43,322 bases of DNA from sequence record PP541514.1. The stretch is one strand, 5' to 3'. Shown here one piece after another: positions 509-35,500 of the stretch (the stretch's first letter is position 1; every line of letters begins with the position of its first letter). A program made the position numbers and the translations under genes. The notes beneath the pieces were generated by a model. That model did no database searches. It was not told where the DNA came from and worked only from the letters and a program-made list of their open reading frames with translations. Source of the stretch: Escherichia phage PSK2.

Positions 509-525
509 ATGTTACAGGAGTAGGA
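509..525 (+). promoter_or_regulatory. Candidate phage RNA polymerase promoter, copy 1 of conserved 17-mer ATGTTACAGGAGTAGGA
   Basis: Perfect 17-nt match to copies at 21699-21715 and 33279-33295; sits in the non-coding left end about 260 nt upstream of the first gene. Confidence 0.4.
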
Positions 526-785
526 GGGTTTTAGGGAACTACATACATACTACCTACTACTACTCACTAGTGTTCACTAGTAATGCCCTATATTACGACC
601 GTAGGGAGTAAGCATTACCTACACAGTCACCGCATCACTACGTGCCCTTTCACTTCGTACGGGCACTACGTTCTGCTCTATGTAGTGCTAGATGGTATTA
701 GTTAGCATTGGCTAGTATTGGTTACAGCCATTGGCTACATAGTGCTATCTCTAGAGCTATCCCTAGAATATATAAGGAGTTATAC

Positions 786-1340
786 ATGTTACCGTCTAGT
801 CGGGCTATGGCTAAAGCCACTGGTAGTACATACTACTACACAGGGAAGCCCTGTAAGTATCAGCACATAGCGAAACGCCTCACCAGTTCTGGTGAATGCT
901 CTGAGTGCTTTAAGGTTAGGAGTACCAGCCCCGCCCGTAAGGAGCGCATGCGAGAGTACCATAAGGTTTATCAGGTACAGAAAGCTGAGGCTTTAAGAGA
1001 GTACCGTAAGACACGCCGACCTAAGCACATTATGACAGAGGAGCAATTACAGCGTAAAGTTCGCCACAATGCGCGCTACCGTGCTGCGCGTACTCAATCC
1101 GTACCCTCATGGTATGGTGAGTGGGATGAGTTTGTTATGTTGGAGGCTATTGCTTTAGCAGCGGAGAGGACAGAGTGTACTGGCATAGCGTGGCATGTTG
1201 ACCATATGCTACCACTAAAGGCTAAAGAGGTATGCGGCCTACACTGCGCGGGGAACATTCAAGTGATACCTGCAGCGCTTAACACTTCTAAGTGTAACAG
1301 ACTCCTGTACACAGGGCCGTTGGAGTGGCTAAAGGCATAA
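786..1340 (+). CDS. HNH family endonuclease with N-terminal Cys-rich region
   Basis: ATG at 786 preceded by AAGGAG (774-779); HNH-like motif WHVDHMLPL...GLHCAGNIQVIP...NTSKCNR; the track ORF 708 begins at TTG upstream. Confidence 0.55.
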   Translation: MLPSSRAMAKATGSTYYYTGKPCKYQHIAKRLTSSGECSECFKVRSTSPARKERMREYHKVYQVQKAEALREYRKTRRPKHIMTEEQLQRKVRHNARYRAARTQSVPSWYGEWDEFVMLEAIALAAERTECTGIAWHVDHMLPLKAKEVCGLHCAGNIQVIPAALNTSKCNRLLYTGPLEWLKA

Positions 1341-1346
1341 ACTCGA

Positions 1347-1385
1347 GGTAATACAGTGCTATAAATGCTGTGTTACCTTTTTTTC
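1347..1385 (+). terminator. Rho-independent terminator candidate
   Basis: Stem GGTAATACAG / CTGTGTTACC (one wobble) followed by a T-run at 1378-1384, just downstream of the stop at 1340. Confidence 0.5.
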
Positions 1386-32484: not shown

Positions 32485-32486
32485 TA

Positions 32487-32504
32487 GAGGCCCTTCGGGG
32501 CCTC
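32487..32504 (+). promoter_or_regulatory. GC stem-loop with UUCG tetraloop (GAGGCCC-TTCG-GGGCCTC)
   Basis: Perfect 7-bp stem right after the stop at 32484; no immediate U-tract, so either a weak terminator or an RNA stability element. Confidence 0.35.
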
Positions 32505-32533
32505 CCCTTATCAAAATTCTTTTAGGAGATCTT

Positions 32534-35500
32534 ATGGCTCAATTTCTGAACCAAGAACCGAATCCACAGGAAAAGGATTCTGCTAAGGGTACAACCCTTA
32601 AACCTGCGCCTGCTCGTGTAGATTGGAATGACGCTGGCGATGACGGCTTAAACGCCCTGGAGCGTTCCTCCTTACTAGCACAGGCCAAGACTCCTGCTAC
32701 TACAGCTGCAGAGAGCTTTGCGTCTGGTATGGGCAACAGCATCATCGCCGCAGCTATCCGCAAAGCCTCTGCCCCAGCATTCGTCCCAGAGCAAGGTTTT
32801 GATGCTAAGAAACAATTAAGCACTGATTCCCGGGCTAAGCTATACACCCCCAATCAGGAAGAGATTGATTACTTACATGGGGCGGTGTCCCCGGAAGATT
32901 ATAACTATCGTATCCAAGCTATGCTGGAACAGCGTGACCGTGACCGTCAGATGTCAGATAACACCATTGCAGGATTCGCTGGTGCGCTGGTTGGTGATTC
33001 CCCGTTTATCCTAGCTCCGATGTCTGCAGCAGGTATTGCTGGTCGGGCCGGCTTAGCAGTACGCACTGCTATTCGTGCTGCGGATGTAGGTACAGCTGTT
33101 TATGCACAGGACCAACTGGGTCAGTCTGCGGCAGTTACTGCCCTTGTAGCCGGCGTCGCTGGGTTAGACCAACTCTGGGACATGTCTAAGGCTGCTAAAG
33201 CGGCAGCAAAGGCGCGCACCGGGCGTGAGCCTATGTTTGACCCAGATGCGCCTACAACTCGTACAGCTAGGGATGCTAATGTTACAGGAGTAGGAGAGGG
33301 AGATACTATCCTCACTAAGGTACTGGATGAACCTATCCAAGTTCGCCGAAACAACACTGCTGCTGTTAACATGAAAGCACAGGACGTAGTTCGTTTCCTT
33401 AAGACCTCTGAGCACTTGTCTAAAGGTCAGAAGGCTATTCTGGACACACTGAGCGACGCAGTACAGGATATTGATTTTAAACTGGTGGCTGGTTCTTCTA
33501 ACCGTAGCCACTACGGATTTTCACCAACGTCAACAACTGATAGGGGTTTTGTATCTTTACGTGCCCCTAAGAATGCTAATGGAAGTACCTGGACAACTGC
33601 AGGCGATGCCCTACGCGCCATGGACGCCGATACTAGTCGAGTAGCGGTGCACGAGCTGATTCACGCTGCCACCACTAGAGCCATTAAGCGGAACCCTGAA
33701 ATTGCTGGTAAGCTGGAAGAGGTGCGCGCTGCAATAGCAGCCGATTCAACCCTTAGTGACAAGCTTAAATACTACGCAAGTGATGTGCACGAGATGTTAG
33801 CTGGACTAGGTGATAGCCCTGAGTGGGTGGAGTATCTCTCTAGAACTCAATCTCCTACCGGTAAGAGTATGCTCCGCCAGATTGGTGAGTACATCATGAA
33901 TGCCCTTGGGATCCGTACTAAAGGCTCCGCTTTGGAAGATGTACTAGATGCATATGAAGACGCTGTTAAGTGGACTGCAAAAGATTACGCGGAACAAGTT
34001 CAGAGCTTCCGCAGCGAATCCTTCCAGGACTTAGCGGATACGTCGGTTAAGAACGAGGCATTGAAAGCTCAGGCTATGATGGACACTGCCAAGCGTAAGT
34101 TCGCCACTATGTTCTCACTCTATGACAATATTTCAGAGGGTAGCGAGGACTTAGCACGCTTATTAGTATCTGATGCTACCGCTGTGGGTGGGCGTAAGCC
34201 ATCTGTGGTGGACTTCAAGCGTAACCTTACGTTGGAGATGGACGCCAGTGCTAGTGTAGTTGAAGATGCTATACTCGGTGCCCTTAAGGACAAGGGCGTA
34301 GGTTTCCTTGATCGCTTCTTCCATCGTAGCAACTTCCGAGCCGCCCGCGCTGACTTAGAAGACCGCTTGGGCCGTTACCTAGACTCTGCATACAGTGCTG
34401 AGGTTAACGGACGTCCCGTGCCTCTACCGGACTCCGACTTAGTTCCGCTTGTTGAGGCGTATCGCAACTCTGGCTGGGCTAGTAAGTGGCACGACCACAT
34501 GACTGCCGCTGGCTTGGTGGATGACGGTACCCTGGTTAAATCGGACTATTACTTCCCACGCCAGTACAGCTACGATAAGATGCGCCAAGGGATTGCGAAT
34601 GGTCGCTCCCTGGATAACTACCGGGATTTATTCCGCCAGGCATTACGTGACGTGTATCCGTCTATGGAACCTGAAGTTGTTCAGCGCGTTGCTAAGGAGA
34701 TGGTTGACGGTATCTATAACGGACGCTCCTCGGCTTCTGGCCCTATGTGGAAGCAACTCATCAATGGTATGGGTAATGACGAAGTGGTCATGGCCATGCG
34801 TAATGCTGGCGTAGACGAGAGTGCAATCCAGAGTTTCTTGGCAGGTAACGTCCGAGAATCTGGCGCTACCTCGCCTGCTAAGAACCTGCGTCAACGTACC
34901 CGCTTCAACATGGACAAAGAATACATCGTAGATGGTCAGGTTATGCGCATGCAGGATCTGATGGATACTGATGTAGCTAAGGTTATGCATGGCTATACTA
35001 ACCGAATGTCAGGTCGTGTAGGTATGGCTTACGCCGGAGTCTCTGACCTAAAAACACTAGAGACGATGATTAATGAGTCCAAGCACGCCTTGGCTGATCC
35101 TGGTAAGTGGGAGAAGACCGTTAATGATACTATCGATTTTATCCTAGGTGGGGCACCAGTTGATGCTGGTCAAATGCCGGACCTGCTGCGTGCAGCAGGG
35201 AACATGGCTAATGCCACCATGCTCAAGAACTCTGGGTTGTATCAACTTACTGACACCGCTCTGGCGCTGAAGGAGTTTGGTATGTCCCGAGTGCTGCGCG
35301 GTATGCGCGAGCAGCCCTGGTTTAAAGAAGGTTCCGTAGCTATTCGCACGCCGGATATGGCTAGTCGTCTGGATGCAATCCTACGTGGCAATATCCAGAA
35401 GGAGATGCGCTTCCGCTGGTTGAATACCTATGCAGATGATAATCTGGACCTGACACGTCAAGCCTCGTGGTTTAACGTCACTCAGAACATTGGGCAGGCT

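Follow-up and report, generated by a model that had tools for sequence, protein, structure and literature searches.

A three-copy element in Escherichia phage PSK2 matches the KP34-type promoter and is probably read by the phage's own RNA polymerase

The repeated element and its setting

The window analysed here is the whole 43,322-nt stretch of Escherichia phage PSK2 (PP541514.1), a KP34-like podophage of the genus Drulisvirus whose nearest database relatives share about 90% nucleotide identity over ~85% of length. Its plus strand carries a gene for a single-subunit RNA polymerase (RNAP) of 822 aa (19223-21691; Pfam RNA_pol, 9e-90), followed by a homologue of KP34 gp38 (21716-22159, 147 aa, no Pfam family). 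Further along the same strand lie a strong intrinsic-terminator-like hairpin after the capsid gene block (26170-26207; 12-bp stem, 9 G-C pairs, T10 tail), matched in position by the annotated KP34 terminator at 26623-26660, and ORF 32534-36232, which encodes a 1232-aa homologue of the KP34 internal virion protein gp48.

The initial annotation had pointed to three perfect copies of the 17-mer ATGTTACAGGAGTAGGA, and an exact scan of the window recovered the same three at 509-525, 21699-21715, and 33279-33295, all on the plus strand. The contexts given for them (non-coding left end, directly after the RNAP ORF, and inside the internal virion protein ORF) were correct, with the second 17-mer running up to the ATG of ORF 21716, and the taAT noted before two of the copies and the GAG that follows the third were likewise confirmed. 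That such copies are unlikely by chance was borne out by shuffling, where matches with ≤3 mismatches averaged 0.14 and 0/100 shuffles reached 4, and a scan of the genome for degenerate variants, which had also been proposed, returned one further copy at 13311 with 3 mismatches to the 17-mer. Identity between the copies reaches 2 nt further in the 5' direction, giving a 19-mer that starts with TGAT at 507 and with TAAT at 21697 and 33277, and for which 4 matches with ≤3 mismatches were observed versus 0.00 in shuffles. Read in this frame, the 16-mer T(A/G)ATGTTACAGGAGTA matches exactly at 507, 21697, and 33277 and is each time followed by GGA. With a position weight matrix (PWM) built from related genomes, the three copies score 33.6-33.7 bits compared with a shuffle maximum of 13.6, and a search of the window and ~120 related loci gave no minus-strand copies.

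T(A/G)ATGTTACAGGAGTA is the sequence from which the KP34 RNAP initiates in vitro, where it was named the 'strong promoter' (Lu et al., 2019, Front Microbiol 10:2487, PMC6834552). In that study, 5'-RACE on in vitro transcripts placed +1 at the G immediately after GTA, the 14-nt core by itself gave far less activity, and it made no difference to activity whether -15 was A or G. The start was mapped to 22213 for the copy at KP34 nt 22197-22212, while for the left-end and gp48 copies synthetic templates representing each sequence type were assayed outside the native context; the evidence for the KP34 promoter is entirely in vitro (PMC6834552). The functional unit is thus the 16-bp duplex from -16 to -1, with GGA as the transcript start, and the 17-mer proposed in the initial annotation was shifted in frame, as it takes in +1 to +3 and leaves out -16 and -15, both required for full activity. 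The units in PSK2 are copy 1 (TGATGTTACAGGAGTA, the 'S2' type of KP34) at 507-522 in the non-coding left end, copy 2 (TAATGTTACAGGAGTA, 'S1' type) at 21697-21712, 6 nt past the RNAP stop codon, and copy 3 (again TAATGTTACAGGAGTA) at 33277-33292 within the gp48-like gene, with predicted starts at G 523, G 21713, and G 33293, respectively.

The correspondence with KP34 extends to the layout. KP34 carries its copies at 475, 22197, and 33721, likewise at the left end, after the RNAP gene, and inside gp48, so that 507 pairs with KP34 475-490, 21697 with 22197-22212, and 33277 with 33721-33736. The 16-mers are identical, as are the GGA start, the S2/S1/S1 order given by A or G at -15, the three positions, and the direction, which is that of the genes. 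The element itself shows no difference, PSK2 being another Drulisvirus; the genomes differ in that an additional ORF carrying an HNH-like motif separates copy 1 from the early genes in PSK2. W, the 'weak promoter' of KP34 (22144-22163; Lu et al., 2019, PMC6834552), also has an orthologue in the window, ACTTTGGACATCCGACAAGT with 1 mismatch, at 21644-21663 on the plus strand within the 3' end of the RNAP gene. Of the 32-nt KP34 promoter predicted by Eriksson et al. (2015), the window contains a single degenerate copy, at 2025 with 5 mismatches; the predicted element failed as a template for the KP34 RNAP (PMC6834552).

The three-copy element is therefore the already published KP34-type promoter and not a new one. 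The initial annotation had regarded a sharply conserved promoter as unusual, which does not hold for this clade, where it has been known since 2019 and where 467 KP34-like promoters have been predicted in 135 genomes (PMC11880802). Literature searches found no in vivo transcription-start map of any Drulisvirus, and no searchable paper contains the string GTGATACGAGTA.

Conservation and covariation with the RNA polymerase

Conservation was assessed in ~60 related IMG/VR contigs and 5 reference genomes, across which all three sites are conserved by position. Copy 1 lies at the syntenic left end in 40 of 43 related contigs (by direct scan or by the conserved downstream flank), copy 2 occurs in every one of the ~60 related contigs covering its site, and copy 3 is kept in 13/13 gp48 loci. 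Within copy 3, six of the seven third-codon positions are invariant, compared with 41/200 in the flanks (Fisher p = 6e-4), and the seventh is the base at -7, which switches between the synonymous Thr codons ACA and ACC. This base is A or C and switches together at every site within a genome: sites 1 and 2 were AA in 17 cases, CC in 14, and discordant in 1 (Fisher p = 3e-8), and sites 2 and 3 were AA in 3 and CC in 4.

The base at -7 also tracks the polymerase. The RNAP of the window is 95.1% identical to that of KP34 with 40 differences, none of which (0/40) falls in residues 689-722 (nt 21287-21388), the stretch that aligns to the T7 specificity loop. Within it, the counterpart of T7 Q758-I761 is SAVL in PSK2, at residues 703-706 (nt 21329-21340). 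Across the relatives, SAVL occurs in 28/28 genomes with A at -7 and TIMR in 30/30 with C, counts that carry no formal control for shared ancestry, and these four residues are the sole perfectly -7-associated block in the RNAP. This pattern suggests that the specificity loop takes part in promoter recognition. The two types of polymerase and promoter may go back to two old lineages, in which case part of the covariation could reflect shared ancestry and not repeated co-adaptation. No RNAP residue was found that tracks the TAAT/TGAA difference at -15/-13, which fits the equal activity of the A and G variants at -15 (PMC6834552).

Identity with the KP34 strong promoter and covariation of the -7 base with the polymerase both support the initial reading of the repeats as phage RNAP promoters. 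The probability that the three repeats are promoters of the phage's own T7-type single-subunit RNAP is put at roughly 93%, and the enzyme that reads them is very probably the product of ORF 19223-21691.

Other readings of the repeat and a divergent fourth site

A translation signal comes to mind at copy 2, where the AGGAG inside the repeat lies 5 nt before ATG 21716, an ideal Shine-Dalgarno spacing that is kept in all relatives examined, and could recruit ribosomes to the nearby start codon. Copies 1 and 3, however, are followed by GGAGGGTTTTAGGG and GGAGAGGGAGAT, which lack a start codon at the spacing of a Shine-Dalgarno sequence, and copy 3 sits in the middle of a gene. A ribosome-binding site would moreover have no need of the TAATGTTAC part and would not covary with polymerase residues 703-706, and in vitro the KP34 sequence directs transcription with no translation involved (PMC6834552). 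As an account of the repeat, a Shine-Dalgarno signal is thus highly improbable, and at copy 2 it is best regarded as an additional role that overlaps with the promoter. Equally improbable is a site for a phage nuclease, such as an HNH homing endonuclease, or a recombination or packaging hotspot, even though several HNH endonuclease genes occur in these phages (they are annotated in KP34 and SFN6B), an HNH-like-motif ORF (786-1340) follows copy 1 in the window, and copy 1 is near the terminal repeat. The number and location of HNH genes vary among KP34, KPV811, and SFN6B while the three sites stay constant, and the element covaries with a loop of the RNA polymerase and with no nuclease. The single orientation of all copies, co-directional with the genes, and the distance of copies 2 and 3 from the genome ends also speak against this reading.

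A host sigma-70 promoter or a functionless chance repeat has the least to recommend it. The loose likeness of TAATGT to a -10 hexamer is the sole point in favour of sigma-70, and a scan with the sigma-70 consensus (-35/-10, 16-18 nt spacer) gave no site at or near any copy. At ≤3 mismatches, chance would be expected to yield 0.14 matches to the 17-mer and 0.00 to the 19-mer, versus the 4 observed, and conservation of the element across ~60 genomes, synonymous sites included, argues against both chance and sigma-70. Promoters of the phage RNAP remain the preferred reading of the three repeats.

The degenerate copy found in the scan is a variant promoter-like element, TAATGTGATACGAGTA followed by GGAACAACA, at 13309-13324 on the plus strand. 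Lying between genes, 24 nt before the TTG start codon of a metallophosphoesterase-like gene, it matches the canonical element at 13/16 positions, shares the GGA start, and scores 16.9 bits with the PWM against a shuffle maximum of 13.6. It is invariant in 55 of the 56 contigs that cover it, in genomes of both polymerase types, while the flanking bases vary, and genus-specific variants occupy the syntenic place in two other genera. The odds are about even that Drulisviruses and at least 2 sister genera carry a fourth, divergent phage-RNAP promoter at this place (TAATGTGATACGAGTA plus GGA in PSK2). Situated upstream of both the middle genes and the RNAP gene, it would resemble a T7 class II promoter. 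The fourth site may be new, as a by-product of this analysis; it is possible that the PhageProm set (467 promoters in 135 genomes, ~3.5 per genome; PMC11880802) already includes it.

A sigma-70 reading of the 13309 element was also considered and set aside, as the best candidate, TTGATT-N18-TAATGT, does not fit the consensus and the scan finds nothing there. Four genera do share a conserved TTGAC(A/T) at 27-40 nt upstream of the 13309-type element, but no usable -10 hexamer goes with it. Another match, at 3494 (TAATGTGAGAGGTGTA, 3 mismatches), scored 6.9 bits, which is within the shuffle range, is absent from five reference genomes, and was treated as chance. Koutsourovirus KKP 3828 has a repeated motif of its own, GAGGTTGCACGT..., at the record start and just upstream of its gp38 homologue, where a small ORF separates the second copy from the RNAP gene; no convincing motif copy was found in this phage at the counterpart of 13309.

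Proposed transcription scheme and comparison with other phages

For PSK2, I infer promoter activity, its use in vivo, and the extents of the transcripts. The polymerase would bind the 16-bp duplex, melt its 3' AGTA part, and start the RNA at the next base (GGA...), and transcripts from 523, 21713, and 33293 would run rightwards, co-directional with the genes. Copy 1 at the left end would drive transcription into the early region, like the leftmost promoter of T7. Copy 2 would turn on the head genes, and the hairpin at 26170-26207 downstream of them is likely the end or an attenuation point of its transcripts. Copy 3, inside gp48, would allow re-initiation for the tail-fibre, terminase, lysis, and tailspike genes.

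The first gene after copy 2, the gp38 homologue, has its Shine-Dalgarno AGGAG inside the promoter and its ATG (21716) at +4, and the sequence after copy 2 is GGAATGAAG in 57/60 contigs and GGGATGAAG in the other three. A start at 21713 leaves a leader of only 3 nt before this ATG, an odd arrangement if the first gene is to be translated.

The T7 group (T7, T3, and SP6 class III) likewise combines a short contiguous promoter, a single-subunit RNAP, and initiation with G, and the TAAT 5' end seen here is also found in the T7 promoter (TAATACGACTCACTATA). Shared, too, are several near-identical copies on the coding strand, with one near the left end and others before late genes, a terminator after the capsid gene, and recognition through the specificity loop, which in PSK2 is suggested by covariation. 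The core sequence is different, however, and there are 17 copies in the T7 group compared with 3 or 4 here. The RNAP gene, which in T7 belongs to the early region, stands at the end of the DNA-metabolism block in PSK2, and the promoter after it would consequently be the main late-gene switch. LUZ19 and phiKMV have four phage-specific promoters per genome, in a layout that the authors of the LUZ19 study describe as agreeing with KP34 (Putzeys et al., 2024, PMC10914365); the LUZ19 motif (GgtTATGTCACacACAnnGG) is unrelated, and one LUZ19 copy is antisense whereas all PSK2 copies are sense.

The three repeats can be annotated as phage promoters with starts at 523, 21713, and 33293, which gives PSK2 a transcription map without new experiments. 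SAVL with A at -7 and TIMR with C at -7 form a natural pairing of polymerase loop and promoter base that is of modest use for engineering orthogonal polymerases and promoters; if the association is causal, the swap at 703-706 together with A or C at -7 would be a ready-made natural specificity pair. The conserved divergent fourth site is of modest interest for the timing of expression in phiKMV-like phages, and a true promoter at 13309 would place the RNAP gene under positive feedback from its own product.

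Three repeats and the KP34 strong promoter

The exact 17-mer ATGTTACAGGAGTAGGA occurs on the plus strand at 509-525, 21699-21715 and 33279-33295, as the initial annotation had stated, and the contexts it assigned also hold: copy 1 lies in non-coding DNA, copy 2 runs from 6 nt past the stop of the 822-aa RNAP ORF up to the ATG of ORF 21716, and copy 3 falls within the 1232-aa ORF 32534-36232, the gp48 homologue. The shared sequence reaches two bases further upstream, giving a 19-mer that begins TGAT... at 507 and TAAT... at 21697 and 33277. Allowing up to 3 mismatches, dinucleotide-preserving shuffles yielded 0.14 matches to the 17-mer, while the 19-mer had four matches in the window versus 0.00 in shuffles.

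The window belongs to a KP34-like podophage in the genus Drulisvirus (Autographiviridae, Slopekvirinae); the records closest to it, Escherichia phages EC22.5-2 and Minorna, Klebsiella phage KPV811 and Shigella phage SFN6B, show ~90% identity over 82-86% of the window's first 25 kb. Its RNAP carries the Pfam RNA_pol domain and is 95.1% identical to KP34 RNAP across all 822 residues, with no gaps. Residues 689-722, the counterpart of the T7 RNAP specificity loop by alignment (R694 pairs with T7 R746, R696 with N748, N701 with R756, and S703 with Q758), are free of all 40 amino-acid differences between the window and KP34 enzymes.

A full-text search with the element sequence located a study of KP34 in which the purified RNAP transcribed a template spanning the RNAP gene and the gap behind it, and most 5' ends mapped to nt 22213 by 5'-RACE (Lu et al. 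2019, PMC6834552). The promoters reported there are TAATGTTACAGGAGTA at 22197-22212 and 33721-33736 and TGATGTTACAGGAGTA at 475-490; the two 16-mers were equally active, while their common 14-mer was far weaker (Lu et al. 2019, PMC6834552). Scanning the KP34 genome directly gave the same positions. The window has the matching subtype at each of the three matching positions, each then followed by GGA, so the functional units here are 507-522, 21697-21712 and 33277-33292, with transcription starts predicted at 523, 21713 and 33293. The 17-mer proposed initially thus overlaps the promoter but stops short of -16 and -15 and runs on through +1 to +3. The accompanying comment that sharp conservation of a promoter would be unusual for this group is outdated, the KP34 strong promoter having already been published. 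An orthologue of the KP34 'weak promoter' was found at 21644-21663 with one mismatch.

A different 32-nt element, AGCCTATAGCGTCCTACGGGGCGCTATGTGAA, was predicted to be the KP34 promoter by Eriksson et al. 2015, and KP34 RNAP did not transcribe a template covering the stretch where such elements lie (Lu et al. 2019, PMC6834552). KP34 has two copies; the window has a single degenerate one at 2025-2056 with 5 mismatches.

Conservation and covariation with the polymerase

Five reference genomes and ~120 IMG/VR contig loci were compared, anchored on RNAP, gp48 and an early gene. The post-RNAP copy was found in all contigs covering the site, mainly as the three alleles TAATGTTACAGGAGTA, TAATGTTACCGGAGTA and TGAAGTTACCGGAGTA; the gp48 copy was present in 13/13 loci and the left-end copy in 40 of 43, including those recognised via the conserved downstream flank. 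No minus-strand copies were found in this set. For loci linked by contig, the base at -7 is uniform within a genome, either A or C at all sites, bar one discordant case: sites 1 and 2 gave 17 AA, 14 CC and the 1 discordant pair (Fisher p = 3e-8), and sites 2 and 3 gave 3 AA and 4 CC.

RNAP residues 703-706 (window 21329-21340) read SAVL in 28/28 A-type and TIMR in 30/30 C-type genomes, making this the sole block with a perfect -7 association in 58 RNAP sequences; it aligns to Q758-I761 of the T7 specificity loop. Positions 211 and 212 rank next, with four exceptions, and the association is therefore not merely a lineage split of the whole gene. Polymerase loop and promoter base are naturally paired, SAVL with -7A and TIMR with -7C. 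Within gp48 the element encodes N-V-T-G-V-G. Of the seven third-codon positions in it, six do not vary, versus 41/200 in the surrounding 600 nt (Fisher p = 6e-4), and the one that does is the -7 base itself, where synonymous ACA and ACC track the polymerase type.

Conservation, covariation and frozen codons are together what would be expected of sites read by the polymerase specificity loop; neither a ribosome-binding site nor a nuclease site nor a chance repeat would be expected to show them. A role as a Shine-Dalgarno site would fit copy 2 and no other copy. A nuclease or recombination site would leave both the single orientation of the copies and their covariation with the polymerase unexplained, and the sites are constant although HNH gene content varies. 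Chance, which the initial annotation had already thought very unlikely, is excluded by the shuffle counts for the 17-mer and 19-mer and by a weight matrix made from alleles of related genomes, on which the three copies score 33.6-33.7 bits against a best of 13.6 bits in 30 shuffled genomes. The original interpretation of the repeats as phage RNAP promoters is thus supported with high confidence, by identity with the published KP34 strong promoter and by covariation with the polymerase.

A divergent fourth element

The search for degenerate variants that had been proposed was run with the same matrix, and placed one further site, at 13309, above the shuffle best (16.9 bits). A match at 3494 was rejected at 6.9 bits, below the shuffle best, and is missing from the reference genomes. 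The promoter-like element at 13309-13333 on the plus strand, TAATGTGATACGAGTA then GGAACAACA, agrees with the canonical sequence at 13/16 positions (differences at -10, -8 and -6) and shares its GGA start. It occupies an intergenic gap on the coding strand, with the TTG start codon of a metallophosphoesterase-like gene 24 nt downstream, and is unchanged in 55/56 covering contigs of both polymerase types, while 7 nt close by on the upstream side vary freely; a conserved block lies upstream at ~13259-13300.

Genus-specific variants syntenic with the window site were found in two other genera, each with a motif of its own. Locus L062, whose RNAP is 58% identical, has GAGACACGTT(G/A)TAGAG(G/A)GACA twice directly behind the RNAP gene and the variant GTGACACGTTATAGAGAA in the gap behind the DNA polymerase block (4421), and Vibrio phage OWB (L006) has AAAGTCCCACG(A/T)ACAGG after the RNAP gene and within the gp48 homologue, and the variant TTTAAAGAGTCACGTACAGGGA in the intergenic gap 11719-11919 (11861). 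No such fourth copy was found in Koutsourovirus KKP 3828. These sequence comparisons suggest that 13309 may be a fourth promoter, divergent in sequence and upstream of both the middle genes and the RNAP gene, possibly comparable to the class II promoters established for T7. Against this, the element does not track the -7 switch seen at the other sites, and Lu et al. 2019 (PMC6834552) do not list it among their promoters. A full-text literature search found its sequence in no searchable paper; the PhageProm predictions comprise 467 KP34-like promoters across 135 genomes (PMC11880802) and, at ~3.5 per genome, may already include the site.

In four genera the fourth element is preceded, at a distance of 27-40 nt, by a TTGAC(A/T) hexamer that itself follows an AT-rich stretch (window 13259-13264; locus L007 ~12282; L062 ~4385; L006 11829), with no usable -10 hexamer at sigma-70 spacing.

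Predicted transcript map and genome ends

Copy 2 would drive ORF 21716 through the capsid block, behind which a very strong intrinsic-terminator-like hairpin (26170-26207, plus strand; 12-bp stem with 9 G-C pairs, TTCG loop, T10 tail) occupies the same position as the annotated KP34 terminator. Copy 3 would initiate a transcript within gp48 covering the tail-fibre, terminase, lysis and tailspike genes, and copy 1 would read into ORF 786-1340 and then meet a hairpin carrying a T-run (1345-1379). Downstream of that hairpin is a strong sigma-70-like early promoter (1522-1550); a sigma-70 consensus scan of the window gave no match overlapping any copy. ORF 786-1340, on the plus strand between copy 1 and this early promoter, shows an HNH-like motif (HVDH...N...N) by eye and has no Pfam match at E <= 0.001; KP34 has no annotated gene there.

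In the stretch 21703-21718, the AGGAG inside copy 2 stands 5 nt ahead of the ATG of ORF 21716, and GGAATGAAG is retained in nearly all relatives. A start at 21713 is predicted to leave just a 3-nt leader (GGA-AUG), so copy 2 transcripts would be without the Shine-Dalgarno of their first gene, which would be present only on read-through transcripts, e.g. from the weak promoter at 21644.

Runs of ten G occupy both ends of the window (1-10 and 43313-43322), and its final 66 nt align with nt 1-67 of the KP34 terminal repeat; there KP34 has GGAGGGGGCGGGG, so the window seems to be an assembly cut within a G-rich tract of the terminal repeat; it appears to hold only one repeat copy, and the G-runs may partly be an assembly artefact. 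The same match to KP34 nt 1-67 puts the physical left end ~570 nt before copy 1. Elsewhere, around fourteen imperfect tandem 9-nt units of the GCCCCAACT and GCGCCGGTA types (15723-15848) encode an Ala/Pro-rich repeat within ORF 15022-15855.

The three repeats are the strong promoter already published for KP34, in an arrangement orthologous to that of KP34, and are hence already known; the only parts that might be new are the fourth site and the pairing of SAVL and TIMR with A and C at -7.
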